From contig OY730476.1 in assembly GCA_963422735.1 (NCBI GenBank), forward strand, positions 1,120,001 to 1,184,000: 64,000 bases of DNA, read 5' to 3'. The stretch is from Candidatus Latescibacterota bacterium (lineage in GTDB: Bacteria; Latescibacterota; UBA2968; UBA8231). The notes beneath the pieces are model-generated. The model was not told where the DNA came from. It saw only the letters and a program-made list of their open reading frames with translations, and made no database searches. The position numbers were made by a program, and so were the translations under genes. Shown here one piece after another: positions 11,770 through 46,522 of the stretch. Position 1 is the stretch's first letter; every line of letters begins with the position of its first letter.

Positions 11770-11791
11770 TCTAGGCGAGTTGGATCGCACT

Positions 11792-16817: not shown

Positions 16818-16941
16818 TGGACTTAGCGTACTAACAAGCAACTTGCAAATACATCTTGAGCGTACTGCACTAAGGCGACCTTGCTCGGGAATTTGGCGGG
16901 GATATATTGAGAGGCCATTCACCAGAGAAAGAGACCTACTG

Positions 16942-22611: not shown

Positions 22612-23823
22612 TTAGGCCGCCAGAATCTTCTCGTACACCTCCATCCGCTCGCCCTCGCGCTCTGCTGGATCGGCCAGCTTGAGCCAGACCGCCTGATCCT
22701 TTTTGCCCGCGGCAACATGCTGCACGGCTCCCGCTTCCTCGGGCTTGATCCCGCTCCAAATCACCTCGCCATCCTGCAAAAAGACATAATGGCCGGCGTG
22801 GGCGTCCCAAATCCGCTCGCAGTGGTCGCGGTAAAAAAGCGCCTGCTCGCTGGCAGTCTGCCGCAGCCGCGCGATCTGCTCCGGTGGATCGGCTTCAGCC
22901 GAGTCAAACTCGGCCACCGGCGGCGTCAAGCCCTCCAGCACAAAGTCGATTTTGTCCAAGTCCACCGTCCCAAAGCCGTGCTCGGCCGCGACTGCCACCG
23001 GGCTGCGGTCGCGGCGGAAGGGCGGCGTCGGCCAATCGAGCCGGGGGTCGGTGCCCATCAGGTACGAGCCGCAGGCGTCGGTGGCAACGACGTGATCGCC
23101 GGCGACCAAGCAGTCGGCGATCCGGCCCTCACCGCCCCACTCCATGCGCGCCTGACCGGTAAGTCCGTCGATGATGTTGAGGCAGGGCTGGGTAATCAGC
23201 CCGAGGTCGGGCAGGACATACGAGAGGCGGACGACGTGGTGGAAGTAGGTGCGCAAGCGGCCGTGCGGCGGAATTGGTGGCAAGCCAAAGAGGTTTTTTA
23301 GGCACAGGGTGATGCCCATGAAGCCGTGGTTTTTCATCTTGGCCAGTGAAACAAAGGCGTCGGCTTCGCCCAAGGCGGCCGAAAGCTGGTATTCGGAAAA
23401 CATGATCCCGCCGCCAGGCACCTTGTAGCGTTCAAAGGGCGGGTCGCCAGCCTCGACGTATTCGACGCCGAATTCCTCCAATATCGGCCCGGCGTTGAAG
23501 TCGTCGCCCGGGCGCTCACCCGGAGGTGCAGCGCTGGTATCTAACGCGAAGATCTCTGCGTCGCTGCGCTCCCGCAAGAGCCGCAGCACTGCCCGCATCG
23601 CGTCGTCGTCCACCAGTTCCTGCCGCCGCCCGCCGACCCGGCGGATATTATTGGTGCGCATCTGCATGTTGATCTTGATGCCGATTCGCCGCGCCTTTGC
23701 GATCTTGGCCCACGATCGGTGCAACGGCGCGGTGATTTCCACCAGCTTGCCGTAGATCTCATCCAGCGACGCTTGATGGCTACAGTGCGTGGCGCGGACG
23801 GTGTAGTCTTTCTGACTGCTCAT
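22612..23823 (-). CDS. DUF362 domain protein
   Basis: IGIKIN, SLAKMKNHGFMGITLCLKNLFG, NIIDGL, DHVVATDA. Confidence 0.8.
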   Translation of the reverse strand: MSSQKDYTVRATHCSHQASLDEIYGKLVEITAPLHRSWAKIAKARRIGIKINMQMRTNNIRRVGGRRQELVDDDAMRAVLRLLRERSDAEIFALDTSAAPPGERPGDDFNAGPILEEFGVEYVEAGDPPFERYKVPGGGIMFSEYQLSAALGEADAFVSLAKMKNHGFMGITLCLKNLFGLPPIPPHGRLRTYFHHVVRLSYVLPDLGLITQPCLNIIDGLTGQARMEWGGEGRIADCLVAGDHVVATDACGSYLMGTDPRLDWPTPPFRRDRSPVAVAAEHGFGTVDLDKIDFVLEGLTPPVAEFDSAEADPPEQIARLRQTASEQALFYRDHCERIWDAHAGHYVFLQDGEVIWSGIKPEEAGAVQHVAAGKKDQAVWLKLADPAEREGERMEVYEKILAA

Positions 23824-23955: not shown

Positions 23956-26118
23956 GTGTCCAACCTCTGCAGGCAATTTCCTTTCGCCTTTCTTGGCCTC
24001 CTACTCGCCGCCTCTAGTGTCTACCCAGCCGACTGGCCCTCCTGGCGCGGCCCGGCGCAAAACGGCGTCTCCGGGGAGACCGGCCTCGTCGAATCCTGGT
24101 CGTCTATCTGGCGCACCGAATTTACCGGCCGCTCGACCCCCATCGTCCTCGGCGGACGGGTCTTTGTCATCGGCCGCCGCGGCGAGGGCATCGCCCAAGA
24201 GGGCGTCGTCGCCGCCTTCGACGCCCAAGACGGCACCCTACTCTGGGAACGCGCCTACAATGTTTTCCACACCACCATCCCCTTCAACCGCGTCGGCTGG
24301 GCCAGCCTCGCCGGCGACCCGGAGACCAGCTATGTTTATGCCCACACGGTCAGCGGACTGTTCTTTTGCTTCGACCGCGACGGCAAGGTCGTCTGGTCGC
24401 GCTCGCTGACCGAGGAATTCGGGCGTATCTCCGGCTACGGCGGGCGCATCCACACGCCCGTCGTCGATGAAGACCTCGTCATCATCAGCTATCTCAGCTC
24501 CAACTGGGGCCGCCACACTCCGGGCCGCCACCGCTACTTCGCCTTTGACAAGCGCAGCGGCGAAGTCGTCTGGCTCGCCACCCCAGGGGGCCGCCCGCTC
24601 GATACTACGTACTCCGTGCCCGTCGTCGCCACCATAAACGGCGTCCGCCTGCTTATCGGCGGCAACGCCGACGGTTCCATCTATGCGCTGAAAATCCGCA
24701 CCGGCGAAACCGTGTGGGGCTTCAAGCTCAGTCGTCGCGGCATCAACTCTTCGGTCGTCGTTGCCGACGACAAGGTGTACGCGGCCCACAGCGAGGAAAA
24801 CCTCGACAACACGGCTCTCGGCCGCATCGTCTGCATCGACGCCACCGGCCAAGGCGACGTTACGGGTACCCACGAGGTCTGGCGCTACGACGGCGTTTTC
24901 GCCGGTTATACTAGTCCGATCGTCCACGATAGCCGCTTGTACATCATCGACAACTCGGCCAACATCCACGCACTCGACGCCGAGACGGGCCAAGTACACT
25001 GGGTCCATAACATCGGCACCGTCGGCAAGGGATCGCCCGTGTTGGCCGACGGCCGGCTCTACGCGCCAGAGGTCAACGGCCGCTTCGCCATCGTCGCCCC
25101 CGGCCGCACCGCCGCCAAGACCCTCGACCTTGCCGAGATTACAATGCCCGATGGCCGGCCGGCCGAACTGTTCGGCTCGCCAGCCGTAGCCTATGGCCGC
25201 ATCTACCTCTCCACCGAGGCGGGCATTTACTGCTTCGGCGACCCAGAAGCGCAGTTCCAAGCCGTGGCGACCGCTGCCAACTACCCGCGCGAGCAAGCGC
25301 CCCCTGGCGCAACACCGACGCACCTGCAAATCATCCCCGCCGAAGTAGTAGCCCAGCCTCGGGCCCGCGTGTCGTTCCGCGCTCGGGCCTTTGACGCGCA
25401 CGGCCGCCTGATCGGCCCGGTCGCAGCCGAATGGTCGCTCACCGATTCGGTCGGCCAACTCGACGACAATGTGCTCATTCTCGCGGACGCACCCGGCGGC
25501 TGCATGGTCGTCGCCCAAGCCGGCGGATTAGCCGCCGAGGCGCGCATTGCCGTGCTACCGTCGCCGACCTACAGCGAAGACTTTGAAGGTTTTGCCGCCG
25601 ACGCCGCGCCGGCTTGGATCGGCACGGGCAGTAAGTTCAAAGTGCGCGAAATGGAAGGCAACAAGATTCTGGTAAAGCCGCCCGCCGCCCGCGGCTTACA
25701 CCGCGCCAACACCTATTTCGGCGCACCCGACATGGCCGGCTATACTATCCAAGCCGACCTGCTCGGCACCAAGAAGCGCCGCGCTGTCCCCGACATGGGC
25801 CTGATTGCGCATCGCTACACCCTCGATATGATGGGCTACCACCAGCAGTTGCAGATCCGCACTTGGGCCGCCGAATTGCGGATGGCCAAAACCGTGCCCT
25901 TCGCTTGGGAACCCAGCGTCTGGTACACCATGAAGATGCAGGTGGAAATCGAAGGCGATATGGCCTATATCCGCGGCAAAGTCTGGCCCCGCGACGAGCC
26001 GGAGCCAGCCAAGTGGAGCATCCAAGCAGTCGATCCCCTGCCCAACCACAGCGGCAGCCCTGGGATCTACGGTTATTCCCCCGCCGAAATCTACTACGAC
26101 AACCTGAAAGTGTGGTAA
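23956..26118 (+). CDS. Secreted PQQ-like beta-propeller protein with a C-terminal lectin-like domain
   Basis: Signal peptide, DWPSWRGPAQNG, repeated D..TGE..W propeller motifs. Confidence 0.85.
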   Translation: MSNLCRQFPFAFLGLLLAASSVYPADWPSWRGPAQNGVSGETGLVESWSSIWRTEFTGRSTPIVLGGRVFVIGRRGEGIAQEGVVAAFDAQDGTLLWERAYNVFHTTIPFNRVGWASLAGDPETSYVYAHTVSGLFFCFDRDGKVVWSRSLTEEFGRISGYGGRIHTPVVDEDLVIISYLSSNWGRHTPGRHRYFAFDKRSGEVVWLATPGGRPLDTTYSVPVVATINGVRLLIGGNADGSIYALKIRTGETVWGFKLSRRGINSSVVVADDKVYAAHSEENLDNTALGRIVCIDATGQGDVTGTHEVWRYDGVFAGYTSPIVHDSRLYIIDNSANIHALDAETGQVHWVHNIGTVGKGSPVLADGRLYAPEVNGRFAIVAPGRTAAKTLDLAEITMPDGRPAELFGSPAVAYGRIYLSTEAGIYCFGDPEAQFQAVATAANYPREQAPPGATPTHLQIIPAEVVAQPRARVSFRARAFDAHGRLIGPVAAEWSLTDSVGQLDDNVLILADAPGGCMVVAQAGGLAAEARIAVLPSPTYSEDFEGFAADAAPAWIGTGSKFKVREMEGNKILVKPPAARGLHRANTYFGAPDMAGYTIQADLLGTKKRRAVPDMGLIAHRYTLDMMGYHQQLQIRTWAAELRMAKTVPFAWEPSVWYTMKMQVEIEGDMAYIRGKVWPRDEPEPAKWSIQAVDPLPNHSGSPGIYGYSPAEIYYDNLKVW

Positions 26119-27551
26119 TGCCTACAGCTACGCGCAGCCTCATCCTCATCCTCATCCTCGCCCTAACCGCCTCTGCCGGTGCCCAAACCGCGATGTGGGG
26201 TGGCTCGCCTGGGCGCAACCAAGCCTCGGACGAGAAAAACCTGCCCACCACCTGGAACACCGAGACCGGCGAAAACATCCAATGGTACGCCACGCTCGGC
26301 TCGCAGACCTACGGCGGGCCCTTGATCGCTGGCGACAAAATTTTCGTCGGCACCAACAACCAGGCCGAGCGCGACCCCAACCACAAAGGCGATCGCGGTG
26401 TGGTGATGGCCTTTAACCGCGCCGACGGGGCCTTCCTCTGGCAGATCGCCCATCCCAAGCTGCCGGCCGGCCGCGTCAACGACTGGCCGCAGCAGGGCGT
26501 CTGCTCGACTCCTTTTATCTTCGGCGACCGCCTCTACTATGTCTCCAACCGCGCCGAAGTCGTATGCCTCGACACCGAGGGCTTCCGCGACGGCGAGAAC
26601 GACGGCCCCATCGCCGACGAAACCGCCACCGCGCCCACCAACGCGGATCTGATCTGGAAATTCGACATGATCGCCGAGTTGGACGTCTTCCCCCACAACC
26701 TCGCTACCAGCTCGCCGCTGGGCGTGGACGGCCGGCTCTTCGCCCTGACCAGCAACGGCGTGGACGAGGGCCACGTCCACATCCCCGCTCCCTTTGCCCC
26801 CAGCTTCATCGCCCTCGACATGCAGACCGGCAGCCTCCTCTGGGACAGCGACCTGCCCGGCGACCACATTCTGCACGGTCAGTGGTCCAACCCCGCCTAC
26901 GGCGAGGCCGGTGGCCGCAAGCAAGTAATCTTCCCCGGCGGCGACGGTTGGGTCTATGCCCTCGCGCCCGACACCGGCGAGCTGATCTGGAAATTCGACT
27001 GCAACCCCAAGGTTTCGGTCTGGGAATTGGGCGGTCGCGGCACCCGCAACAACCTCGTCTCAACGCCCGTTTTTCACGATGGCGTGGTCTATATAGGCGT
27101 CGGCCAAGACCCCGAGCACGGCGAAGGTGAGGGACACCTGTGGGCCATTGACGCCGGCGGCACCGGCGACATCACCGAGACGGGCGTGGTCTGGCACTTC
27201 GGCGGCGAACACTACAACCGCACCATCTCCACCGTTGCCATTGCCGACGGCCTGCTCTATGCCGCCGACCTAAGCGGCTTTGTCTATTGCCTCGACGCCA
27301 AGACCGGCACCCACCACTGGACTCACGACACATTCGCTGCGGTCTGGGGCTCGCCCTTTGTCGCCGACGGTAAGGTCTATATCGGCGACGAGGATGGCGA
27401 CGTCGATGTGCTCAAAGCTGGCAAAACGCTCGAAGTACTACGCGAAACCAATCTGGGCAGCGCCGTGTACACTACTCCGGTCGCCCGCGACGGCGTACTG
27501 TACATCGCCTCCCGCAACACCCTCTTCGCCATTGCAGAAGAGAGCCAATGA
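26118..27551 (+). CDS. Secreted PQQ-like beta-propeller protein
   Basis: TAATG coupling; signal peptide; MWGGSPGRN, CLDAKTGTHHW, WGSPFVADGKVYIGDEDG. Confidence 0.85.
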   Translation: MPTATRSLILILILALTASAGAQTAMWGGSPGRNQASDEKNLPTTWNTETGENIQWYATLGSQTYGGPLIAGDKIFVGTNNQAERDPNHKGDRGVVMAFNRADGAFLWQIAHPKLPAGRVNDWPQQGVCSTPFIFGDRLYYVSNRAEVVCLDTEGFRDGENDGPIADETATAPTNADLIWKFDMIAELDVFPHNLATSSPLGVDGRLFALTSNGVDEGHVHIPAPFAPSFIALDMQTGSLLWDSDLPGDHILHGQWSNPAYGEAGGRKQVIFPGGDGWVYALAPDTGELIWKFDCNPKVSVWELGGRGTRNNLVSTPVFHDGVVYIGVGQDPEHGEGEGHLWAIDAGGTGDITETGVVWHFGGEHYNRTISTVAIADGLLYAADLSGFVYCLDAKTGTHHWTHDTFAAVWGSPFVADGKVYIGDEDGDVDVLKAGKTLEVLRETNLGSAVYTTPVARDGVLYIASRNTLFAIAEESQ

Positions 27552-28624
27552 GCGTTGCACCAAATAAAATCGCCGCTGCTCGCGCTGCCCTCGACGCCCA
27601 TGTCCGCGCCATCATCGAGTGGCACTTCAGCCCCGAGACCGGCTGCCCATTTTGGCTCTCCTACGCGCAACAGTTCGACTTCGACCCGCGCGAGAAAATC
27701 CGCTCCTACGCCGACTTGGCCCTACTCGGCCATTTTGAGGACGAATGGCTGCGCGGCGGCCCGGTGCGCCAGTGGGTGCCCAAAGCCTATGCCGACGAGC
27801 CGATCTATGTCTTCGAGACCGGTGGCTCGACCGGCCTGCCCAAATACCGCATCAACATCCGCGACTTCCAAACCGACTACGCGCTCTACAGCGAGAGTCT
27901 GTCCGAGGAGGGTTTTCCCATCGGGGCCGACTGGCTGATGCTGGGGCCTTCGGGGCCGCGCCGCCTGCGCCTTGCCATCGAGTACCTAGCCCAGCTACGC
28001 GGCGGCTTGTGCTTTCTGGTGGATCTCGACCCGCGTTGGGTCAACGAACTCATCCGCGTCGGCAAAATGCGCGAGCTGGAAGCCTACAAAGCCCATGTCG
28101 TCGATCAGGCGCTCAAGGTCCTCAAGGCCCACGACAACGTGCAGTGCGTCTTCACTACCCCCCGCCTCCTCGAAGCCCTCTGCGAAAAAGTCTCCCTGCC
28201 CAAACTCGGGATTAAGGGAATCTTCTGCGGCGGCACGGAAATGACCGCCCAGTTCCACCGTTTCGCGCACGAGGAGTTGGTGCCCGGCCTCGCCTTTGTC
28301 CCCACCTACGGCAACACCCTAATGGGTCTAGCCTGCCCCAAGCCCTTTGACCCAGCCGATGAGTACGCTATCACTTATTATCCACCGCAGCCACGCGCCG
28401 TCATCGAACTGGTTGATCCCAAAGATCCCTCGCGTAAGGTCGGATACGGCGAGGCTGGCCAAGTCATGCTCACCACCCTGACCAAGGAATTTTTCATGCC
28501 CCGCTTCCTCGAGCGCGACGAGGCCGAACGAGCCGCGCCCGTCGACGCTTATCCTTGGGATGGCGTCAAAGACTTGCGCTTGCTGACGGAGTTGCAAGAG
28601 TCCGTGGTGGTGGGAGTGTACTGA
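27548..28624 (+). CDS. EhpF-like adenylate-forming enzyme (ANL/LuxE-related)
   Basis: WHFSPETGCPFW, ETGGSTGLPK P-loop, DLDPRWV, GGTE, YGNT, ERD and terminal GVY match EhpF motifs as recalled. Confidence 0.8.
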   Translation: MSVAPNKIAAARAALDAHVRAIIEWHFSPETGCPFWLSYAQQFDFDPREKIRSYADLALLGHFEDEWLRGGPVRQWVPKAYADEPIYVFETGGSTGLPKYRINIRDFQTDYALYSESLSEEGFPIGADWLMLGPSGPRRLRLAIEYLAQLRGGLCFLVDLDPRWVNELIRVGKMRELEAYKAHVVDQALKVLKAHDNVQCVFTTPRLLEALCEKVSLPKLGIKGIFCGGTEMTAQFHRFAHEELVPGLAFVPTYGNTLMGLACPKPFDPADEYAITYYPPQPRAVIELVDPKDPSRKVGYGEAGQVMLTTLTKEFFMPRFLERDEAERAAPVDAYPWDGVKDLRLLTELQESVVVGVY

Positions 28625-28666
28625 GGTGGGAGTTCGACGCTAAAGTCATATTGAGAGAGGTACGCA

Positions 28667-28745
28667 ATGGATTATCAAAAGTACATCTACTGGCAGGATG
28701 GCGATATGTGGCTTGGCTATTAGAGCGCTATCCCGACTTCGGAGG
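28667..28745 (+). pseudogene. HicB-like antitoxin 5' fragment
   Basis: MDYQKYIYWQDGDMWLGY then frameshift to LERYPDF; RBS present. Confidence 0.5.
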
Positions 28746-28923
28746 CGCGTACTCTCTCCAGTCATCAAGTGTCAACAAACGCCGAACACCCTTCCTAATG
28801 ATCCCCGAACCGATTGATGTCGCGTCTGACATAGGGTAAACCTTTTCCACCCGGTAAGGTTGATTTCCAGTATAGGAATGTGTATCGTCCATACACATAC
28901 TTATAGGAAAGGAGTAGGCGAAG

Positions 28924-29199
28924 GTGGCCAGAGTTCAGTTAGTGATCCCCGATGAGGATCGCGATCGCTTTGTCCATCAGGCGCGGAGCGAGGGCATGAC
29001 CTTGAGCGCGTGGCTCAGGGCCGCCGCCCGCCGACAACTCGAAGAACAGCAGCGATCCCACCCCTTTGAATCCCCGGCCGACCTCGAGAAGTTCTTCAGT
29101 GCCTGCGACGCATTGGAAGGTCCTGGGCGAGAACCGGATTGGCAAGAGCACCTAGCCGTCATCGACGAATCGCGGAAACGGGACGCATCCAAGACGTGA
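28924..29199 (+). CDS. vapB: VapB-like RHH antitoxin
   Basis: RVQLVIPDE...ARSEGMTLSAWLRAAA; GTGA-coupled to the PIN toxin. Confidence 0.75.
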   Translation: MARVQLVIPDEDRDRFVHQARSEGMTLSAWLRAAARRQLEEQQRSHPFESPADLEKFFSACDALEGPGREPDWQEHLAVIDESRKRDASKT

Positions 29200-29588
29200 T
29201 CTTTGTCGATACCAACGTCTTCATGTACGCGGTGGGCCGGCCGCATCCTCTCCGCGGTGAAGCGCGGGAATTCTTCGCCGAGTGTACCCGATCTCGCGCT
29301 CCTCTATGCACATCGGCGGAGGTGCTGCAGGAGCTAGCTCACGCCTACCTACCGGTTGCGCGAGCGCAGACACTCGATGCTGCCCTATCGCTGATCGCCA
29401 AGTCCCGCGTGGAGGTGTGGCCGCTGGAGCAGGCGGATGTCACCTTAGCGTGGCAACTCCACCAACAGCATCCCACTCTGGGTGCCCGGGACCTTTGCCA
29501 CCTAGCCAGTTGTCGCCGGCGTGGCGTGAGCGAGGTCCAAACCTTCGATCAGGCCCTCAGTGCTGTCATCGGTAGAGCTGCACAGTGA
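29196..29588 (+). CDS. vapC: VapC PIN-domain toxin
   Basis: IFVDTNVFMY, TSAEVLQE, ARDLCHLA, TFD. Confidence 0.88.
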   Translation: MIFVDTNVFMYAVGRPHPLRGEAREFFAECTRSRAPLCTSAEVLQELAHAYLPVARAQTLDAALSLIAKSRVEVWPLEQADVTLAWQLHQQHPTLGARDLCHLASCRRRGVSEVQTFDQALSAVIGRAAQ

Positions 29589-29725
29589 TACTCGGCGCGA
29601 AATAACCACGCCTACATATCTCTTCGGTAGTGGCTATTGCAATGTGATTTGAGGATCGTCCTCATACGCCGAATCTATTTGAACCAGACGCTCTAAAATC
29701 AGACAGAATAACCCGAACAAATGCT

Positions 29726-30019
29726 TTAGTAACACAGTCTCTTTGATAACACCAGTGCATTCAAAACGCCTTCAGGAAAATCAGTACCAAACATGCCTTC
29801 ATCGTCCTTAATCCAGAGATGGATTCTTGGCAGTCTTTGACACAACTCCCGTATCCTATCATCAGCGAGTAGCAACTTGATTTTCTCCGGACTATTGCCT
29901 TTGATTACAACATTCTTGTCCCAAAAGCCCCTGTCAATAAATTCACCGCCTATATCGGTAGCAATCTGTGTCCAGATTTCGTCCTCGGACAGACCCAAAC
30001 TAGATCTGCGTTTACTCAT
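29726..30019 (-). pseudogene. Hypothetical protein (DUF3137-like), apparently internally deleted
   Basis: EIWTQIATDIGGEFIDRGFW joined directly to VIKGNSPEKIKLLL; GAGGA RBS. Confidence 0.45.
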
Positions 30020-30041
30020 TTTTTCCTCATTAAGCGTTCCG

Positions 30042-30129
30042 TTTAGACACCTCAACGGTTGGGGTGTCGCAGACACCCACCCCAACCGTTGGATTACAAA
30101 AAGTCTTCGACGGAGAGCTACGCGGTACA
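30042..30129 (-). promoter_or_regulatory. Cassette element copy 1 (TGTACCGCGT...AACGGTT-GGTGTC-N3-GACACC-AACCGTT-GGTGTCTAAA)
   Basis: Conserved with copy 2 at 30366-30476; bulged palindrome; directly upstream of an RBS and ATG. Confidence 0.7.
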
Positions 30130-30130
30130 C

Positions 30131-30167
30131 AAAAAAAGCCGAGCCCGCCCCAAAGGGCAGGCCCGGC
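30131..30167 (-). terminator. Intrinsic terminator
   Basis: GCCGGGCCTGCCC-TTTG-GGGCGGGCTCGGC-T7; stem mismatches are G-U on the minus strand. Confidence 0.85.
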
Positions 30168-30174
30168 CCTCGGC

Positions 30175-30339
30175 CTACAAGCGATAAGAGTCAACCAACT
30201 CCTCCATCGCTCGATAGGCCAACTCGAGGCGGTTGTGGCACAGTTCCATCTCGTCCCTATCATTCAGGGACTCCGCTACTTGGAACTCGACCTCTTCGCG
30301 CTCAATGCACTCCGCTAGGATTTTATATTCGGCGATCAT
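30175..30339 (-). CDS. 54-aa acidic helical hypothetical protein (below the ORF track cut-off)
   Basis: MIAEYKILAECIEREEVEFQVAESLNDRDEMELCHNRLELAYRAMEELVDSYRL*; AGGAG RBS; fills the space between element copy 2 and the terminator. Confidence 0.7.
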   Translation of the reverse strand: MIAEYKILAECIEREEVEFQVAESLNDRDEMELCHNRLELAYRAMEELVDSYRL

Positions 30340-30365
30340 TGCTCAATCTCCTGATTAAAATTCGA

Positions 30366-30476
30366 TTTAGACACCCCAACGGTTGTGGTGTCACCGACAC
30401 CACCATAACCGTTAGGACCCAACCTATCAGAGAGGGTTAATAGCTACTCAGAAAGAGTTGATAGCCACGCGGTACA
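30366..30476 (-). promoter_or_regulatory. Cassette element copy 2
   Basis: Same motifs as copy 1 with a different loop and bulge and a longer hairpin-rich spacer. Confidence 0.7.
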
Positions 30477-30477
30477 T

Positions 30478-30515
30478 AAAAAAAGCGGGCCCTCCCCCGA
30501 AGGGGAAGACCCGGC
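30478..30515 (-). terminator. Intrinsic terminator
   Basis: GGGTCTTCCCC-TTCG-GGGGAGGGCCC..T7 with a cUUCGg tetraloop. Confidence 0.88.
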
Positions 30516-30536
30516 GCATGGTTTACATTGTTACCC

Positions 30537-30950
30537 TCAAGGACCACCCAGATCATGGATGCTGATAGTGCTCATGCCCCGCACGTGCTGCAGCTTGAGT
30601 TGAACGCGCTTACCCTTGTAGCTGCGCGGGTCGAGACCGAACAGCTGCTCTAACTGCTCGCAGTGATCCTTCGAGAGCACGAAGCCCTTGCCGCCCCCTT
30701 TAAACCACAGCACCGGCTTGTCCTCCATTCTGCCGGTAGTGCGATTATAGATCTCCTCAGAGGTGATGGACTTAATCGTCAGCGTTGGTTCCTTAGAATC
30801 AAGAATGTCGCCCACCGAGTAGTAGGGCGACGAGTAATACTGCTGGGTTAGCGTTTTCTTTGAGTTTTGTGCGTAAAGCAGGATCATACTTGTAAGAATC
30901 ACGCTAATAGCGTGGAGAAGCACTCTTTCGATTGTGAAGATGCTATTCAT
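30537..30950 (-). CDS. Membrane-anchored phage-type protein, paralogue A
   Basis: N-terminal hydrophobic helix; TLTI..EE..KPVLWF..KGFVLS..LFG..YKGKRVQL; clear paralogue of 31639-32067. Confidence 0.7.
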   Translation of the reverse strand: MNSIFTIERVLLHAISVILTSMILLYAQNSKKTLTQQYYSSPYYSVGDILDSKEPTLTIKSITSEEIYNRTTGRMEDKPVLWFKGGGKGFVLSKDHCEQLEQLFGLDPRSYKGKRVQLKLQHVRGMSTISIHDLGGP

Positions 30951-31171
30951 TCCTTCTGCTCCTTCTTAGACGGGTTAAGACATGCGGCTTCCTTCTCGTT
31001 GAGTTTCTCGAACTGGTTCTGCTTGGCCCGTTCGAGCACCAAGCCTTGACGGTACATAGTCCGCACCATCTCGGTCGGCTTGACGTTGGGGCCAAAGACC
31101 TGTCGAAGGAACAGCAGGTCGGGGTCGTCGAGGTCGAACGGCACCTCGACCCTAATTGCTTGGTGCGCCAT
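30947..31171 (-). CDS. 74-aa protein, possible ribbon-helix-helix DNA-binding protein
   Basis: AAGGAGG RBS; IRVEVPF strand followed by two helices; ATGA-coupled to paralogue A. Confidence 0.55.
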   Translation of the reverse strand: MAHQAIRVEVPFDLDDPDLLFLRQVFGPNVKPTEMVRTMYRQGLVLERAKQNQFEKLNEKEAACLNPSKKEQKE

Positions 31172-31337
31172 CGGCTTCCTCCTTCCAGCCGGCCAAAAAG
31201 GCGGCATACATCCATTCGCGGTCGGGGGTCTCCCCCGTCTCGAGGTTAAGCGTGTAGCAAACGCCACACGCTTTTTCCACCGCTACAGTACGACGTGCTA
31301 GCTGATCAAACTAGCCTTGCGTCCACCGAAGGTTCAT
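31152..31337 (-). pseudogene. Small phage-like ORF with in-frame TAG at codon 9
   Basis: MNLRWTQG*FDQLARR...CGVC...MYAAFLAGWKE; TAATG coupling to the upstream ORF. Confidence 0.5.
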
Positions 31338-31375
31338 TAGCTCTCTGCCTCTAGCTCGGCCAGCTCAGCCGCCCG
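31315..31375. repeat. Junction direct repeat copy 1 (21 bp and 41 bp blocks fused)
   Basis: 31315-31335 = 32337-32357 and 31335-31375 = 32404-32444, identical. Confidence 0.9.
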
Positions 31376-31642
31376 GTCGGCGCCCGCCCGCTGGAAACAA
31401 TCCGCCTCGGCTATGATAGCCGGATCGTGGGTAGCCTCGGCCTCGGCCTCGTCGATTGCGGCGGCCCTTGAAGCCACCGCCAGTGCGTCGAAAGCCTCTC
31501 GGAAATCGCTAAAGCGGAGAGCACCGGAAGTGCCCAGCCGCCGGGCCCTATCTGAGCTACTTGATAGCCACTCGACACATAATCCGAGGGCGCAGTCCAG
31601 CTTCGTAAGAGCCTAGACCGGAGAGGCCGTCTGCGTACTCAT
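31337..31642 (-). pseudogene. Small phage-like ORF with in-frame TAG at codon 10
   Basis: MSTQTASPV*ALTKLDC...RAAELAELEAES*; ATGA overlap with paralogue B stop. Confidence 0.5.
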
Positions 31643-32067
31643 CTTTCATCCTCCCCTGTGTAGTGGATACGAATCGTGCTTAGGCCTTGTACGGACTGGA
31701 GCTTGAGTTGAACGCGCTTACCCTTATAGGTACGCGGATTAAGACCGAACAGGTACTCTAGCTGCTCGCATTGATCCCACGAGAGCACCAAGCCCTTATT
31801 CCCTTCGTAAAACCACAACACCGGCTTGGTCTCGGTGTGTCCAGTAATGTGGTGCTTCACCTCCTCGCGGATAATCGTTTGAATGGTCAGCGTCGGCTGC
31901 TCCGCTTCGATGTCGGCCATTGAGTAGTACTGCGACGGGTAATACGGCTGGATAAGCGATTGTACTTCGTTTCCTTTTATTGGGTTGGGCTCATATCTTA
32001 TTAGTGCTATGAGCCCGTTTCCTAAGAGTACTGCGAACGTGCTTAGACATAACAAAGTCCAGTTCAT
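31639..32067 (-). CDS. Membrane-anchored phage-type protein, paralogue B
   Basis: N-terminal hydrophobic helix; YPSQYYSMADI, TLTI, KPVLWF, KGLVLS, YKGKRVQL; AGGAGG RBS. Confidence 0.7.
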   Translation of the reverse strand: MNWTLLCLSTFAVLLGNGLIALIRYEPNPIKGNEVQSLIQPYYPSQYYSMADIEAEQPTLTIQTIIREEVKHHITGHTETKPVLWFYEGNKGLVLSWDQCEQLEYLFGLNPRTYKGKRVQLKLQSVQGLSTIRIHYTGEDER

Positions 32068-32111
32068 TTACTTCTCCTCCTGTTTAGATGGGTTTAGACA
32101 TCTGATACCTT

Positions 32112-32348
32112 CTATTTCAGGATAGAGGCGGCCTTGACTAGACGCTCTATCCAAAATTGACCCCAATCCTTCGTCGCCTTTAGCGTCCTTTGTGGCTTGT
32201 CCGTCTTAAAGACAAACCGATTTTCCTTCGTACTGATAACAACCTCCAAGGACCATAGCGACGCCTTCCGCATGATAGAAATATGCCGGTCGATGACCGC
32301 ATACGTGCCTGCGGGCAAATCGAGCCACTCTTCCTTCCTTGCGTCCAC
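32112..32348 (-). CDS. Small hypothetical protein, 5' end probably frameshifted
   Basis: 78-aa ORF; the NLRWTQG peptide shared with 31152-31337 lies one base out of frame upstream. Confidence 0.45.
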   Translation of the reverse strand: MDARKEEWLDLPAGTYAVIDRHISIMRKASLWSLEVVISTKENRFVFKTDKPQRTLKATKDWGQFWIERLVKAASILK

Positions 32349-32444
32349 CGAAGGTTCGCTTCACTCACACCATACTGCTGAGCATACCCGATTCTTGTCC
32401 GGCCATTAGCTCTCTGCCTCTAGCTCGGCCAGCTCAGCCGCCCG
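32337..32444. repeat. Junction direct repeat copy 2 (same blocks separated by 46 bp)
   Basis: Identical 21-bp and 41-bp blocks to 31315-31375. Confidence 0.9.
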
Positions 32445-32798
32445 CCGGACCAGCTCAGCCGCCGCTTTAGGCGCGGCCTGCTCTAGCGCCCATCGCCAAT
32501 CCCCTGCGGTGGCGCCGTGCTTGGCCGCCACCGCCTCAAAGCTACCGAGCGTGTCGGCCAGCGTCTGGTAACGATTAGCAACCAACTCCACCAACTCAAC
32601 GCGATCCGCCAGGGTCAGAAAGCCGATCCACCCCGACCATTTGCCGTTCTTGTTATAGGTCTTATCCGTACAAACAGCAAGACTCTTGGCCCCGTCCTGG
32701 GGCTTCGACAAAAAAGTAACCCCGTTGTCACTCACTAGGAAATAATAGGGCCGCTGGGAGCCGGGATACAACCCCGTGCGAAATCGTACGGTTTTCAT
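32406..32798 (-). CDS. Phage-like hypothetical protein
   Basis: AAGGAG RBS and upstream CATAAT; YNKNGKWSGW motif; first gene of the small-ORF array. Confidence 0.65.
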   Translation of the reverse strand: MKTVRFRTGLYPGSQRPYYFLVSDNGVTFLSKPQDGAKSLAVCTDKTYNKNGKWSGWIGFLTLADRVELVELVANRYQTLADTLGSFEAVAAKHGATAGDWRWALEQAAPKAAAELVRRAAELAELEAES

Positions 32799-32917
32799 GC
32801 TTCGATCTCCTTATTTAACCTTCATTATGAAAACGACGCCTTTTCCGACGCCCCAAACTATTGCAGATTATAAATCGCAAAGGCTCGCCCCAAATCCAAA
32901 CCAAAAACCAAAATCCC

Positions 32918-34315
32918 ATGCACCTACCTCTTCTCCGCGCCGGTCAGCCCTACGCCAGCCTCGACCGCCTCGCTGTCGCCCACATCGCCACCGGCCAACC
33001 TATGGCTCACGTCAGCCAAGCCAACCGCGGCCTGATCGCCCGCGACTTAGCCGCCCAAGAACGCAATCGCCAAGCACTGCAAGCTCTCACCGTCGCCGAA
33101 TTGGTCGCCATCTGCCAACGAGCAGCCGATCTCTTTTTGCACGCCGAGCTGCCTTTAGGCGACGGCAGCCAAACCCCGGACGACTACGTCGCGCAAGTCT
33201 CGGCCACCACCGGCCTGCCGCAGTCATTGGCCCGCGCCAACATGGACAAAATCCACCGCGTCGGCGTCGAAATGCCCGCCGTGCTCAGCGGCCTGACCCG
33301 AGGTTTGGATCTAACCATCCTCGACGACGGCCCAAGTCCGCTCCACTTCGTGCCCCACGCCCAAGCCCTCGGCTGCATCCTGCCGAGCAATTCGCCCGGC
33401 GTCCACGCGCTATGGCTGCCAGCCATCCCGCTCAAGAAGCCGCTGGTGCTCAAGCCGGGCCGTGAAGAGCCGTGGACGCCCTATCGCATCGCCCAAGCCC
33501 TGATCGCCGCCGGCTGTCCACCCCACGCTTTGAGCTACTACCCGACCGATCACAGCGGCAGCACTGAAATCCTGCTCCGCTGTGGTCGCTCGCTGCTGTT
33601 TGGCGGCGGCTCTACTGTAGCGCCCTGGCGCGGCGACCCTCGCGTCCAGTTACACGGACCAGGGCGCAGCAAGATCATCATCGGCGCAGACAAAATCGAC
33701 CAGTGGGAGCACTACCTCGACTTCATGGTCGCCTCAATCGCCGCCAATGGGGGCCGCTCCTGCCTCAACGCCTCCGGCATCTGGGTGCCCGAGCGGGGCC
33801 TTGAAATCGCGGCCGCTCTCGGCGAGCGTCTGCGCCAAATCCAAGCCCGCCCCCTCGACGATCCCCAAGCCCAAATCGCCGCCTTCCCCAATCCCGCAGG
33901 GGCGCGCCAACTCTCAACCCGAATCGACGCCCAGCTCGGCGACGCGGCCCAAGACACGGCCAGAGACCCAGGCGAACGCATCGCCGAGGTCGGCGGCTGC
34001 ACCTTCCTCAACCCAACCTTGATCCACGCCCCCGACTGGCAACATCCGCTCGCCAATGCGGAGTATCTCTTCCCCTTTGCCGCCGTCGTCGAAGTTCCGC
34101 AAGAAGAAGTGGTCGTGCGCATCGGCCCGACGCTGGTAGCTACCGCCCTCACCGAGGACGAGCACCTAACGCGCCAACTGCTCGCCGCGCACCACATCGA
34201 ACGCCTCAACCTCGGCCCGATCCCCACTCACCAGATCGCCTGGGATCAGCCGCACGAGGGCAACCTCTTCGACTTCCTCTACCAGCAGCGCGCCTTGCAG
34301 CGCAGAGCCGGATGA
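32918..34315 (+). CDS. Aldehyde dehydrogenase-fold acyl reductase (EhpG/LuxC-like)
   Basis: LPSNSPGVH, LKPGREEP, NGGRSCLNASG (catalytic Cys), EYLFPF; HGPGRSK where hydrolytic ALDHs have ELGGK. Confidence 0.8.
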   Translation: MHLPLLRAGQPYASLDRLAVAHIATGQPMAHVSQANRGLIARDLAAQERNRQALQALTVAELVAICQRAADLFLHAELPLGDGSQTPDDYVAQVSATTGLPQSLARANMDKIHRVGVEMPAVLSGLTRGLDLTILDDGPSPLHFVPHAQALGCILPSNSPGVHALWLPAIPLKKPLVLKPGREEPWTPYRIAQALIAAGCPPHALSYYPTDHSGSTEILLRCGRSLLFGGGSTVAPWRGDPRVQLHGPGRSKIIIGADKIDQWEHYLDFMVASIAANGGRSCLNASGIWVPERGLEIAAALGERLRQIQARPLDDPQAQIAAFPNPAGARQLSTRIDAQLGDAAQDTARDPGERIAEVGGCTFLNPTLIHAPDWQHPLANAEYLFPFAAVVEVPQEEVVVRIGPTLVATALTEDEHLTRQLLAAHHIERLNLGPIPTHQIAWDQPHEGNLFDFLYQQRALQRRAG

Positions 34316-35439
34316 CCCCTTTCGACTTTGATCCATCCATCCGCGTAGTCTTTGGTGCCGGGACCCTCGACCGGCTAGGCGATCTCGCCCAGGCGTTGGC
34401 CGGCCCCCACGCCCTGCTCGTAACCGACCCCGGCCTCGTCCAAGCCGGCCTTGCCGAACAGGCCCTGCACGCGCTACAAAACGCCGGGCTAGAGACGACC
34501 CCCTTTTCCGCCCTAACGGAAAACCCCACGACCGAACACGTAGCCGCCGGCGTCCGTCACGCCCGCGCCCACGGCCCCATTGACCTGATCGTCGCCTTGG
34601 GCGGCGGCAGCGTTATGGACTGCGCCAAGGGCATCAATTTCCTGCTTACCAACAGCGGCCCAATGCAGGACTACCGAGGCTATGGCAAAGCCACCCAGCC
34701 CATGCTACCCTCCATCGGCGTTCCCACTACGGCCGGTACGGGTAGCGAGGCCCAATCCTACGCCCTGATTACCTGCCCTGACACGGGTTCCAAAATGGCC
34801 TGCGGTGACCACAAAGCGCGCTTCCACATCGCCCTCCTCGACCCGAACCTGCTGGCCAGCACCCCCCAGCGCGTCCGCGCCGACGCTGGCATGGACGCCC
34901 TCGCCCATGCCGTCGAAAGCTACGTCTCCACTCGCCGCACCCCCCTCTCGCAGATGTTCGCCCGCCAAGCCTGGCGGCTGCTAGCGCCCCACTACGAGGC
35001 GGCCGTCGCCGATCCCCAAAACGCCGCCGACACCATGCTTTTAGGGGCCCATCTAGCCGGCACCGCCATCGAAAACTCCATGCTCGGCGCCGCCCATGCC
35101 ACCGCCAACCCCCTCACCGCCCGCTACCCGCTCACCCATGGCCGGGCCGTGGCCCTGATGCTGCCGCACGTGATCCGCTTGAATGGCCCCGTGGTGGACG
35201 ATCTATACGGCGAACTGTGCGTGGATATCCAACTCAATGGTAGCACCTTCGCGCTCGCTGCCCATCTCGAAGAACTATGCACTATGGCAGGACTACCGCG
35301 TCGGCTCGCCGATTGTCAGGTCGCCGCAAGCAATCTACCCGCCATGGCCCAAGACGCCGCCGGCCAATGGACCGGCACCTTCAACCCGATTCCTCTGCAA
35401 GAAGTGGATTTCCTGCGACTGTACGAGACGGCGTTTTGA
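34312..35439 (+). CDS. Iron-containing alcohol dehydrogenase
   Basis: ALGGGSVMDCAK, PTTAGTGSE, DALAHAVE, GAAHATAN, HGRAVA; ATGA coupling. Confidence 0.92.
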   Translation: MTPFDFDPSIRVVFGAGTLDRLGDLAQALAGPHALLVTDPGLVQAGLAEQALHALQNAGLETTPFSALTENPTTEHVAAGVRHARAHGPIDLIVALGGGSVMDCAKGINFLLTNSGPMQDYRGYGKATQPMLPSIGVPTTAGTGSEAQSYALITCPDTGSKMACGDHKARFHIALLDPNLLASTPQRVRADAGMDALAHAVESYVSTRRTPLSQMFARQAWRLLAPHYEAAVADPQNAADTMLLGAHLAGTAIENSMLGAAHATANPLTARYPLTHGRAVALMLPHVIRLNGPVVDDLYGELCVDIQLNGSTFALAAHLEELCTMAGLPRRLADCQVAASNLPAMAQDAAGQWTGTFNPIPLQEVDFLRLYETAF

Positions 35440-35985: not shown

Positions 35986-36009
35986 GGCTCCCACAAGGGA
36001 TGCCCCTAC
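35986..36009 (-). repeat. GTAG-type REP-like palindrome
   Basis: GTAGGGGCATCCCTTGTGGGAGCC, overlapping the stop of the solute-binding gene. Confidence 0.6.
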
Positions 36010-37584
36010 GGTGTAGCCCCTACCTTTTTGTACCTCTCCGCGCGCACCTGGTAGATTTCCCGCGCCTCGCGGGTCCTCTCCGTCCCACCCCGCTCCATCC
36101 ACTCGGCTACAAAATCGTCGAAAGAGTCGAGGGCGCGCTCGCCGCGCACCCTCTCGGCGTACGCGGTCCTCTGCACATTGCGCCGATCGCGCAGATACTG
36201 GATCGACGAGGGCACCCCGTCCGGCTTGCCGAAAAGGCCGGCCTGCGCCCACTCAGGGCGCTGATAGCGCGCGCGGTGTTCCAGCATCGCCGTCGGCAGG
36301 TACTGATCGGCCATGGCGGGCCGGACGCCGCAGGGCGCGAAAAAGCCGCCCGGGCCATCGACGTTCAACACGGTCAGATGCTTGCTGGCAGCATGGCGGT
36401 CATCGTAGGGCGGCAGAGGGTACAGTCCGCGCTCAGCGTCGAACTCCCAATGCACGCCCCGTTGCCCCATCCGCACATCGACGAAGAGCTTTTCCTCAAC
36501 CGCTAGTGCCTCGAAAATTTTGAGCATCCGCACGACCTTCTCAGGCGCTGCGGCCACCTGCTTGCCGAAGACGAAGACATGAGCGGCCGTGCTCCACACC
36601 CGCGCCCCGCGGAGGCCCTCCGGGCCGGCGGGGAACGGCCCGACCACCCCCTCGGCACCCGGCTGCAACGCAGCAATGACCGATACCAACGACGCCTTGT
36701 TGTACTGGTCAAAGCTGTTATAGCTGCCCTGGCCGAAGAGATAACCGGTCTTGCCGCTGACGAATTTCTGGTAGGGCATCGGGCTGCTCTTGATGGGGCC
36801 GATCGCAAAGTCGGGGTCAATCAGCCCATCGTCGTACCACTTGCGCAAAAGCCCCAGTATCTCTTTGACCTCGGGCCGAGTCCCGCCCCACACGACCTCG
36901 CCGTCGCGCAGCATCCAACCGTGCGGCGCGATTCCGTAGGCCCCGAAAACTTCGCCGAACGCCGTGAACCAAGCCTGCGCGTTGGGACCCATGCCGTAGG
37001 TGTCCTCTATCCCATTGCCATCTGGATCCTCGTGGCGAAACTTCCACAGCCGGCACCGGATAGCCGAGGCTGCTGCCCCAAGTGGGGATGCCGTAGTTGG
37101 CCCCTTTCCAGTAGGCGTAGAGCCACGTCGAGGGCGCGTACTCGTTGAGATAGCGCACCTAGTTGGGCGCGTGTTTTTGGATGACCTTGTAGGGAATGGG
37201 CAGCGCATAGCCGTGGTGAGCGTCCTTTTGCACCACGACCGGATCGCCGGCGTAGAACAAATCGGGCCCATTGCCGCCGGCAAAGACCAGCGGCCGACGC
37301 CGCATATAGGCAAAATGACGGGTAAACATCGGTTTGAAGTCGACGTTGAACCGCGCTTCGAGCCGCTTTTCGATCCAAGTGCCCTCGCGCACGGTGGGAA
37401 AGCGCGGGATGCTCATCCAAGCGATCTCGAGCGGCTCCGCCGGGTCATCGACGACCGCATCCCAGTCGATACTCCGTTCCGCCTCTGCCGCCTGCATCCT
37501 CCGCGCCTGCCGCTCGGCGAGGGCATACACCGTGCTGATACAGGCGAAAAACGCGAACAGGGCGAGCATTTTTTTCCGCGTCAT
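36006..37584 (-). pseudogene. Extracellular solute-binding protein (LplA-like), disrupted
   Basis: Signal peptide; DPDGNGIEDTYG and WYDDGLIDPDF; in-frame TAG at 37159 and a frameshift/deletion near 37060. Confidence 0.75.
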
Positions 37585-44225: not shown

Positions 44226-46125
44226 TTAATACGCCAGCGAGACGATGCGCGAGCGGGCCTTGGTGCCGCCGTCGGTCTCTACCTCGAGGCGCAGAACGTA
44301 CAGCCCGGGAGCAAGCCGGGCACCCCTTTCATCCCGGCCATCCCACACCGTGGAAAACTGTCCGCTCTGCGCGGGTCCGCGGAAGACCTCGCCGATCCGT
44401 ACGCCCTGCAAATCGTAGAGCACCACTGCTAATTCGGCCTTCCCGATCACATTCAACAGATCGCATTCAATCCGCACTGCGTCGTTGATCTGGTCCCCGT
44501 TGGGCGTAAACGCCGCTGGCACGAGCTTGAGCGCACCGATCACTTGCCCGGCGATGTTGGTCAGCCCCACGCTCAGCGTATTGCCCTCAACCCGCTCCAC
44601 TACTTCGCCCGGCGTCATTACTTGGCGCACTTCCTGCGGCCGAGTGCTGTCGTACACGCGGCCCGAGAACAGGGTGCCAAACTTGAACACCTCACAGCGA
44701 AAGACCACTTCAATCAGCTCGCCATCGCGCGCTTGGTCTATCCGCGGGACGCCGACTGCAAAGCCGCGCCCATCGAGCCGCCGCACCTCAAAGGCAACCT
44801 CCTCGCCGCTGTAGCGCACCGCGTCAATGCCCTCCGCCTGAGTCGGCGTATCAATCTCGATAGTGTCGAAACCCAAGTCCCCGGCTTCTAGGCGCGGTAG
44901 CAGCATGTATGTAAATGAACTCGGTCGCCGCGCCCGTGGGTGCTAGGGGGAGCGCAATCTCGGCCAAAACCAAGGCAGCCACCGGCGGCTTAGACACGGC
45001 GAATTGCACGAAATTCAGCCGCCCACCCGCTTCTACCGTGGACTGGAAGTTCGCCCTGATCTGCACGAACTGCCGAGGTTGCGTCCCCTGCATCGGAGCG
45101 CTACCCAACGCCAAGTCGTAGGCCGCGCTCCAGCCCTCCCAGTTTTCAGTATCGGGTGTGATTCCAGCCTGCTGTGCCCTCTCCAGTCGGTTGTACGACC
45201 GCAGCGTCAAAGGCCGCCCTCGGGTATCCAGCCGGGTCTGCTCATCGCCGCGGAACGTGCTGCGCCAATAGGTGTTGGGGTCGCTGTCGTCGCCGGCGCG
45301 CGTACTGAGCTCGATTTGCGCGCCGGGATCGACTTGGGTGTTCCAGCTTAGTTTGCCCAGCGCCGCCCGCCCACCCAAATCGAGGACATTGGACACGTAG
45401 CGCGCCGTTGGCGTGAAGCCCTTGCCGTAGATTTCGAACTCGGCGATTTCCCAGATGCCTTGGGTGTTTTCAGGCGCTTCAAAGAGCATGCGGCGAATTG
45501 GTACCGGCGGCAGATCCAGTTCGACCACCGAGGTCGTATTCTCGGTAGCCTGATGTACGATGTCGAAGTCGAAGAAGGAGCCGCGCGTGCCCTCCTTGAG
45601 CGGGTTGCCATCGCTGATGCCGATGATAAAGCGCTGTAGGAAGCGCTCGTCCTCAAAGCGCTCGCGCAGATAGAACTTGACGCGCTCGACTGTGAAGTTG
45701 CCGCCGAACTCAAAAATTAGACTCTTATTGCGCACGCCGATGCCCGAGGTGGTCCAATGCCCGTCGCCCAAGAAGACGGTCTCTACATCTTCGTCCCAGA
45801 GCACGGCCTCGGTGTCGCCGCTTTGCTCCCAGCCCCGCCAAACCAGCGTCTGCACTCGGCCACCGCGCTCCTTGAGGCGCGGTGTCAGGTTTACCGATGG
45901 GTCCAGTTGCTCCGGCTCGATGAAGTCCGCATCGAGCTTCAGGGATTCGACTTGGCCGTGCTGCGCGGATTCCACCCCCTCCCAATCGAGCTGCACAAAT
46001 TCCACCCCCTCGGCCAACTCCGGCCTCGGCAGCGAGGAACCGCCGATTCGATAAATCGTCAGCGCATCTGCGCCGCTAGTCAGCCAAGCGGACACGAGCA
46101 CAAGTCGGGTACAGGTCTTTAGCAT
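44226..46125 (-). pseudogene. Large secreted protein with C-terminal FlgD-Ig domain, frameshifted by a 4-bp duplication at 44905-44912
   Basis: Signal peptide; FTPNGDQIND...VWDGRDERG...GLYVL; removing one ATGT joins the two ORFs. Confidence 0.8.
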
Positions 46126-46519: not shown

Positions 46520-46522
46520 AAT

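Follow-up and report, generated by a model that had tools for sequence, protein, structure and literature searches.

A conserved EhpF/EhpG-like gene pair among genes for exported propellers in Latescibacterota and other phyla: part of a candidate carboxylate uptake-and-conversion system

Results

Gene content of the locus

We describe five genes, designated P1 to P5, in the genome of a Candidatus Latescibacterota bacterium (G000; 4.95 Mb in one contig), whose nearest relatives are labelled Latescibacterota and, in some cases, Gemmatimonadota. The whole stretch of DNA analysed, called the window, comprises 64,000 nucleotides (G000:C1:1120001-1184000); open reading frame (ORF) calls and Pfam matches place all five genes on the forward strand within window positions 23956-35439. 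They encode two exported proteins resembling pyrroloquinoline quinone (PQQ) propellers, an adenylating enzyme, a protein of aldehyde dehydrogenase (ALDH) fold and an alcohol dehydrogenase, and a variable island lies among them:

P1, 23956..26118, + strand: exported PQQ-like propeller, 720 amino acids (Pfam PQQ_2, E 2e-42)
P2, 26118..27551, + strand: exported PQQ-like propeller, 477 amino acids from the ATG at 26118 (PQQ_2, E 5e-27)
P3, 27548..28624, + strand: EhpF-type truncated ANL adenylating enzyme, 358 amino acids (EhpF in the PDB, E 7e-43)
Variable island, 28625..32917, no strand: VapBC and small orphan genes (lower GC content, comparison with relatives)
P4, 32918..34315, + strand: probable EhpG/GriD-type ALDH-fold reductase partner (Pfam Aldedh, 51.9 bits against a cut-off of 23)
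P5, 34312..35439, + strand: iron-containing alcohol dehydrogenase (Fe-ADH and ADH_Fe_C domains)

A first-pass annotation of this DNA had reported three translationally coupled ORFs and a further coupled pair at these coordinates, and the ORF calls, the Pfam matches and the start/stop overlaps read from the sequence (TAATG between P1 and P2, ATGA between P2 and P3 and ATGA between P4 and P5) agree with it. It had also let that pair, P4 and P5, follow on from P3; the P4/P5 overlap stands, but continuity between P3 and P4 does not, 4.3 kb of unrelated DNA (28625-32917) lying between them. By comparison with a related locus (L010), the start of P4 is most likely the ATG at 32918 (MHLPLLRAGQPY), not the TTG at 32861.

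The adenylating enzyme P3

Residues 17-358 of P3 align with residues 22-366 of the EhpF structure (3l2k/3hgu) in a phmmer search of the PDB, and Pantoea EhpF matches P3 alone when G000 is searched by tblastn (E 4e-39, 33% identity). The Pfam AMP-binding match (30.2 bits) ends at residue 307, and the C-terminus of P3 falls where EhpF ends; Pfam finds no AMP-binding_C match in the protein, which consists of the N-terminal ANL domain only, with the A10 lysine region absent. Invariant in an alignment of 79 orthologues are G92, G93, T95, G96, P98 and K99, together with E322, R323 and D324; we take G92-K99 to be the ANL P-loop and the region of E322, R323 and D324 to be the ribose-binding Asp motif.

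Mean column identity over these 79 sequences is 76%, P3 is single copy in G000, and its identity ranges from 61 to 94% across Latescibacterota, Poribacteria, Gemmatimonadota, Acidobacteriota, Calditrichota and Planctomycetota. In a quick tree, the 79 cluster-associated proteins form one tight clade with very short branches (SH-aLRT 98), distant from EhpF (very long branch), from a Streptomyces homologue and from a haloarchaeal homologue. Phylum labels change 10 times on this tree against a mean of 32.3 when shuffled, and because the labels are clustered in this way we consider inheritance to be mostly vertical, with few label conflicts. P3 is a member of a distinct, slowly evolving orthologous group and is not EhpF proper. 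The wider family is small: of 1.84 billion representatives scanned, 1485 match at E<=1e-3, and the number falls to 260 at E<=1e-30. Among its members, an EhpF-like domain is found naturally fused to a class-III aminotransferase (P0187, 824 amino acids) and to a Zn-dependent alcohol dehydrogenase (P0200, 725 amino acids), both partners being aldehyde-consuming enzymes; P0187 as an ALDH::EhpF fusion was rejected, its partner being an aminotransferase and not an ALDH.

The ALDH-fold protein P4 and the dehydrogenase P5

Pantoea EhpG likewise matches P4 alone in G000 by tblastn, and the two proteins share 26% identity over 95% coverage (E 2e-24). When P4 is aligned with 66 relatives, the catalytic Cys is kept in 67/67, as is the oxyanion Asn, and the position of the ELGG glutamate holds His in 67/67, where Pantoea EhpG has Gln and a haloarchaeal homologue Tyr (the residues are Cys301 and His265 of P4 when numbered on the ORF that starts at 32861). 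A Glu399-like residue is invariant in the family, and the Lys192-like position is Lys in 64/67 and Arg in 3/67. The initial description of P3 and P4 as EhpF/EhpG-like, with P4 keeping its catalytic Cys and having lost the ELGG glutamate, is thus borne out by the full-length EhpF homology, the EhpG homology, the reciprocal unique matches in G000 and the invariant columns. P5 has strong Pfam matches to Fe-ADH (PF00465, 156.5 bits, E 6e-46) and ADH_Fe_C (PF25137, 127.5 bits, E 7e-37) and falls below the cut-off of every NCBIfam equivalog, the best being ErcA (257.6 against 550).

Homologues of the pair also travel together outside this setting. Among 72,556 plasmids, P3 matches 29 records and P4 matches 19 at E<=1e-8, from the same organism groups, and P3-like and P4-like genes lie within 2.5 kb of each other in 12 of the 12 records that list coordinates for both. 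Some Streptomyces homologues of P3 are annotated as 'arylcarboxylate reductase'. On Halalkalicoccus jeotgali plasmid 2 (L085 6487-10545), genes for an SSF symporter, an EhpF-like protein and an ALDH stand in a row, and a short-chain dehydrogenase/reductase (SDR) gene adjoins them on the opposite strand.

Several characterised systems resemble the pair. EhpF and EhpG of the Pantoea agglomerans ehp cluster (D-alanylgriseoluteic acid) are, like P3 and P4, a short ANL enzyme without a C-terminal domain and an ALDH-fold protein with the Cys and without the Glu, and the AMP-binding and ALDH genes of ehp overlap (L086 7868-8968 and 8968-10389). Bera and co-workers reportedly proposed in 2010 that they convert phenazine-1,6-dicarboxylate to a 6-formyl compound. 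The present locus differs from ehp in its low identity (33% for P3, 26% for P4), in the absence of phz core genes, in having an Fe-ADH rather than an SDR as partner, in the His of the P4 family where EhpG has Gln at the Glu position, and in its association with propellers, a radical S-adenosylmethionine (SAM) enzyme and a TonB receptor. LuxC/LuxE works by the same logic: an acyl-AMP-forming synthetase is followed by a Cys-acyl enzyme of the ALDH superfamily and by NADPH reduction to the aldehyde. However, there is no LuxD-like transferase here, and neither P3 nor P4 has a Pfam LuxE or LuxC match at E<=0.01. Type I carboxylic acid reductases such as Nocardia Car, built as adenylation, carrier-protein and reductase domains (A-PCP-R), perform the same net reaction (acid, ATP and NADPH to aldehyde) but are single polypeptides with a phosphopantetheine carrier and an SDR-type reductase, whereas here there is no carrier and the reductase is of ALDH fold. 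For GriC/GriD of grixazone biosynthesis in Streptomyces griseus, PMC10179220 describes how an AMP-binding protein forms the acyl-AMP, which a second protein then reduces to the aldehyde; the likeness to P3 and P4, two separate proteins with the same logic, is drawn from that description and not from sequence. The grixazone substrate, 3-amino-4-hydroxybenzoate, comes from neighbouring genes, of which the present locus has no counterparts.

By analogy with EhpF/EhpG and GriC/GriD, P3 and P4 would together constitute an ATP- and NAD(P)H-dependent carboxylate reductase. Going by homology, P3 would adenylate a free carboxylate to the acyl-AMP, the acyl group would move to the invariant Cys of P4 as a thioester, NAD(P)H would reduce this thioester to the aldehyde, and P5 would reduce the aldehyde to the alcohol. 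Reduction of the thioester rather than its hydrolysis is expected because the water-activating Glu is absent. That loss, the pairing on plasmids, the GriC/GriD precedent and the aldehyde-consuming fusion partners all point to acid-to-aldehyde-to-alcohol chemistry.

Alternatively, one could envision the oxidative direction, in which P5 and P4 oxidise an alcohol via the aldehyde to a bound acyl group or acid and P3 activates the acid for ligation. Fe-ADH and ALDH folds are usually oxidative, and the NCBIfam models nearest to P5, all below cut-off, are catabolic dehydrogenases; the fusion of an alcohol dehydrogenase to an EhpF-like domain is compatible with either direction. Yet the precedents with the same gene pair are reductive (PMC10179220), and the general-base Glu that would release the acid is absent in 67/67 P4-family proteins and in EhpG. 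Because this residue is missing, we regard the oxidative direction as improbable.

Independence from phenazine synthesis

The module had been proposed at the outset to be independent of phenazines, with no phz core genes in the window, and a scan of the window ORFs indeed finds no phz gene. The PhzF family (PF02567) has 0 matches in G000, in a search whose control was positive in 10/14 genomes; PhzA/B (PF03284) also has 0 matches there, in a search whose control was silent. Searching G000 by tblastn with Pantoea EhpA, EhpD and EhpE, which cover PhzA/B, PhzF and PhzG, gave no match, and EhpC matched at 26% identity only, at genes that we read as probable TrpE-like anthranilate synthase genes. 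Nor does a phz operon always co-occur with P3: in an even sample of 101 genomes from the window's phylum, 36 of the 50 P3-positive genomes are without a PhzF-family gene, and in one genus P3 is present in 20/20 genomes and a PhzF-family gene in 0/20.

Synteny and the larger cluster

The first-pass annotation had suggested looking for synteny of the five genes across phyla, and it is found. Among 80 related loci, a P1-type propeller is present at 70 and a P2-type propeller at 70 (at >=40% identity), P4 at 66 and P5 at 43; all five genes occur at 39/80 loci in at least five phyla, with order and strand kept in 39/39. Five loci have less than 1.5 kb of DNA after P3, and nine more are without P4 in the available DNA despite 1.6-10 kb after P3.

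Clustering the ORFs of these 80 loci, many of which end before downstream genes could appear, showed that conservation extends downstream of P5, to a third propeller (prop3) at 32 loci, a HemN-like radical SAM enzyme at 29, a TonB-dependent receptor (TBDR) at 12 and a PaaK-like ligase at 11. The consensus order is propeller, propeller, EhpF-like, ALDH, Fe-ADH, prop3, radical SAM, propeller, TBDR, PaaK-like. By this comparison of gene order, P1-P5 are the front part of a conserved predicted cluster of at least 12 genes. Its second half lies in G000 at C1:4263053-4271743 (L082 7936-16755), 3.1 Mb from the window, and the genes that follow it there encode a flavin adenine dinucleotide (FAD) enzyme, an SSF symporter, a glycosyltransferase of family GT4, a thioesterase and an ABC/FtsX pair. 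In another genome of the same genus (G095), the cluster runs uninterrupted from P1 through P5, prop3, the radical SAM enzyme, a propeller, the TBDR, the PaaK-like ligase and the FAD enzyme to the SSF symporter. Eleven genes of G095 are 82-93% identical to their counterparts in the two G000 halves; the propeller encoded next to the radical SAM enzyme on its downstream side, duplicated in G000 relative to G095, is 68% identical. Because G095 is contiguous and the two genomes cease to be homologous precisely within the spacer between P5 and prop3, we consider G000 to represent the derived, split state.

With the siderophore-receptor model TIGR01783, the TonB receptor scores 233.5, above the cut-off of 223.5, and its second-best match is the Fiu catecholate receptor. 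The radical SAM enzyme is about equally far from HemN, ChuW/HutW and STM4012, and the flavoenzyme resembles halogenases, QhpG and LodB; all of these matches are below cut-offs. Among the cluster genes scanned there is no scaffold-building enzyme (polyketide synthase, non-ribosomal peptide synthetase or chorismate enzyme).

The two halves also co-occur among the 101 sampled genomes. P3 is present once each in 50 (17/29 genomes of family f1, 24/26 of f2, 8/9 of f3 and 0/36 of the others) and the radical SAM gene in 49; the two genes occur together in 48 genomes and are both absent from 50. Another 2 genomes have P3 without the radical SAM gene and 1 has the radical SAM gene without P3; these three are 81-86% complete. 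In one genus, 2/4 genomes have both and 2/4 have neither. As a control, a Vgb-lyase/SGL-like gene of similar class-level range mismatches P3 in 16/101 genomes. We attach no statistic to this co-occurrence because related genomes are not independent.

These comparisons place the predicted trio P3-P5 in a single conserved system of at least 12 genes, as its presumptive cytoplasmic arm, together with 3-5 exported eight-bladed propellers, enzymes, a receptor and a symporter. One could argue instead that the propellers and the reductase trio are mere neighbours without a common function: the set is broken by the island in the window, its second half lies 3.1 Mb off without obvious harm, and 10/80 loci are without a P2-type propeller at >=40% identity in the available DNA. 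However, propellers precede P3 at 70/80 loci in at least five phyla and are joined to it in the window by start/stop overlaps, the order is unchanged in all 39 complete sets, and additional propeller genes lie among those for the radical SAM enzyme and the receptor. Because of this synteny, we consider mere neighbourhood very improbable.

The exported propellers

P1 and P2 each have a hydrophobic N-terminal signal without a lipobox Cys (by eye), and all of the extra cluster propellers in G000 carry signal peptides. An AlphaFold model of P1 (predicted local distance difference test, pLDDT, 91.4) shows an eight-bladed PQQ-like propeller whose best Foldseek matches are BamB and tetrathionate hydrolase, the latter a cofactor-free propeller enzyme. 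A model of P1 residues 440-720 (pLDDT 91.9) shows an immunoglobulin-like domain followed by a jelly roll of the concanavalin A-like lectin/glucanase type; its nearest folds are lectin, GH16 and Big_2-CBM at template-modelling scores of about 0.4-0.55, which are generic matches. A separate Atlas lead for the C-terminus of P1 is Big_2, LamG or 3-keto-disaccharide hydrolase. The sequence matches of P2 in the PDB are BamB and quinoprotein repeats only (E about 1e-9).

The propellers miss the BamB model TIGR03300 (57 and 76 bits against 285) and the PQQ dehydrogenase models TIGR03075 (40-45 bits against 480) and TIGR03074 (20-26 against 833). The sequence likeness of the propellers to BamB and the PQQ quinoprotein dehydrogenases, which share the eight-bladed propeller of PQQ-like repeats, is at the level of repeats only; BamB moreover is a lipoprotein, whereas P1 and P2 have no Cys after the signal sequence (by eye), and tetrathionate hydrolase is an equally close fold. 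Prop3 passes Pfam PF13570 at 190-203 bits against 133 (L082 7936-9135; L061 15044-16201). We take this family to be the propeller of beta-alanine-activating enzyme, which in animal ACSF4 is presumably fused to an ANL adenylating domain; we note this as a lead only, and in the present cluster prop3 is a separate exported protein. As for PQQ synthesis, PqqC has no match in G000, in a search whose control was silent, and the PqqE model reaches 60 bits there against a cut-off of 381.

The island between P3 and P4 and neighbouring regions

The island has a GC content of 0.545-0.556, against 0.60-0.65 in its flanks, and holds the following features:

About 28667-28839, just after P3: HicB-like frameshifted remnant (by eye)
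28924-29199: VapB (Pfam scan)
29139-29588: VapC (PIN domain, E 3e-18)
29726-30130: small orphan ORF, no family match
30537-30950: small orphan ORF, no family match
30947-31267: small orphan ORF, no family match
31639-32067: small orphan ORF, no family match
32112-32348: small orphan ORF, no family match
32406-32798: small orphan ORF, no family match

All six small orphan ORFs are on the minus strand. A segment of about 1.07-1.1 kb is tandemly duplicated within the island (41 bases are identical at 31335 and at 32404), and the small-gene cassette is present in two copies, 30537-30950 resembling 31639-32067. A palindromic 23-mer occurs twice (30046 and 30370) and has no other copies in G000; its interpretation as a dispersed element or as attC sites was rejected, there being only two local copies and no Rfam match. 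Among metagenome contigs, one, from an abundant relative with about 90% identity, connects 29670 to 32915 with moderate support (a side of 39 letters), and another joins 31334 to 32404, which corresponds to removal of one repeat copy.

The gap between P3 and P4 is <=128 nucleotides in 19/66 related loci and about 10 nucleotides in L010, and the two genes are adjacent in G095. Elsewhere the same junction holds an insertion sequence whose transposase is of the DDE_3 type, a BsoBI restriction-modification pair, antitoxins of the AbiEi family, ATPases of the AAA_14/DUF4143 type, a TonB receptor together with a HAD hydrolase, a thiamine pyrophosphate enzyme or transglutaminase-like proteins (seen in loci L003, L004, L006, L007, L036, L051, L060, L068, L073 and L076). 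Because this cargo differs between lineages, we regard the junction as a recurrent insertion site. In the Poribacteria loci (L012-L029 and L045-L059), a Vgb-lyase/SGL-like gene (233 amino acids) lies between the EhpF-like and ALDH-like genes, sulfatase and M19 dipeptidase genes follow the ALDH gene, and three propeller ORFs, the first one shorter, lie upstream of P3. The Vgb-lyase/SGL-like gene was rejected as a member of the system on the strength of its mismatches with P3 (given above) and its position far from the cluster in Latescibacterota.

On the other side of the five genes stands one divergent neighbour:

22612..23823, - strand: DUF362 gene, divergent neighbour of P1 (Pfam DUF362, E 1e-23)

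It is present at 8/80 related loci, in the closest relatives only, and probably lies outside the system. Rfam and tRNA scans of the window gave no matches. A promoter scan found 3 sites against 3.5 expected, none of them upstream of P4, and at that rate is uninformative. One sequencing run, presumed to be of RNA, has coverage over portions of P2, P3 and the island and is unusable as expression evidence. Further along the window, positions 46000-52200 (GC 0.47-0.56) look like a defence island, with a GmrSD-like nuclease (46908-48503) and an Eco57I-type methylase fragment (51280-52176), and positions 8747-12970, 16843-19431 and 36006-37313 hold long ORFs (678, 330, 392, 862 and 435 amino acids) without a Pfam family at E<=1e-5.

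Discussion

We tentatively favour, at somewhat less than an even chance, the view that the cluster is an uptake-and-conversion system for an external non-phenazine carboxylate, with P3-P5, as a two-protein reductase and alcohol dehydrogenase, forming its cytoplasmic arm. The carboxylate would cross the outer membrane via the TonB receptor, the periplasmic propellers would handle it, the symporter would bring it into the cytoplasm, and there it would be tailored and reduced. We favour this because the cluster contains both a TonB receptor and an SSF symporter and a haloarchaeon has an independent symporter-EhpF-like-ALDH operon, and because it encodes several periplasmic proteins, one of them lectin-tailed, and no scaffold-forming enzyme.

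A number of observations weigh against this view. The chemistry of P3-P5 in this clade is predicted from homology, and spending ATP and two NAD(P)H on an imported acid would be unusual for catabolism. The characterised homologues, EhpFG and GriCD, act in biosynthesis; three members of the cluster (the halogenase/QhpG-like flavoenzyme, the radical SAM enzyme and the PaaK-like ligase) resemble tailoring enzymes of natural products; and the downstream ABC/FtsX pair is a possible exporter. In the window, P3 and P4 can no longer be co-transcribed as one unit, with no promoter-like site before P4. The PaaK-like gene, furthermore, was not found near the cluster in 3/5 genomes of other lineages, because of which we consider the outer parts of the cluster to vary.

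Some of these points would fit biosynthesis, in which a secreted small molecule, either metallophore-like or a propeller cofactor, is made from a common cellular acid and the TonB receptor retrieves the product or its metal complex. The EhpF-like, ALDH-like and alcohol dehydrogenase enzymes, the radical SAM enzyme, the flavoenzyme and the PaaK-like ligase would then be tailoring steps, which accounts for the cost of the reduction as well as for the presence of tailoring-type enzymes. Biosynthetic precedent exists in the ehp cluster and in GriCD (PMC10179220). The receptor is of siderophore type with its Fiu match, and a thioesterase lies downstream along with the ABC/FtsX pair. Strong conservation (76% mean column identity) and a single copy of P3 are what one would expect for a fixed, universal substrate. 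The failure to find PqqC in G000 has also been counted in its favour, a weak point in that the control of that search was silent. However, biosynthesis has against it the want of a scaffold-forming enzyme among the scanned cluster genes and the presence of an SSF symporter, a member of an importer family; the PaaK-like and FAD genes are not universal, and no tie of a small molecule to the propellers has been observed. We regard it as rather unlikely, yet as the main alternative.

One could go further and envision that the cluster makes or salvages a new cofactor or ligand for exported, 'empty' PQQ-like propellers in bacteria without PQQ synthesis. We judge this distinctly unlikely. If true, it would describe a periplasmic enzyme system with its own supply line, consisting of the TonB receptor, the symporter, carboxylate reduction, and radical SAM and flavin tailoring. 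That such a cofactor might be a protein-derived quinone, as the QhpG/LodB-like flavoenzyme could suggest, is speculation.

To our knowledge, carboxylate reductases made up of two proteins in the manner of EhpF/EhpG have been described in a few antibiotic pathways only. The same kind of module appears here in a single-copy, unusually conserved cluster with exported propellers, present in 50/101 genomes of the phylum. The module is thus of a known kind, and what is new, in that searchable papers do not describe it, is the phenazine-free setting with propellers, a HemN-like enzyme and a TonB receptor; we found no account of the cluster in the searchable literature, a search outside of which most subscription journals lie.

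The second half of the cluster, with its radical SAM enzyme, TonB receptor, PaaK-like ligase, FAD enzyme, symporter and propellers, alters the likely nature of the system from that of a reductase trio beside two propellers, and the contiguous form in relatives provides a defined gene set for heterologous expression. The cluster is common in Acidobacteriota as well as in two phyla of sponge symbionts, Poribacteria and Latescibacterota. It would represent a widespread envelope-spanning system, and could provide the first functional assignment for some of the very many PQQ-like propellers found in these phyla.

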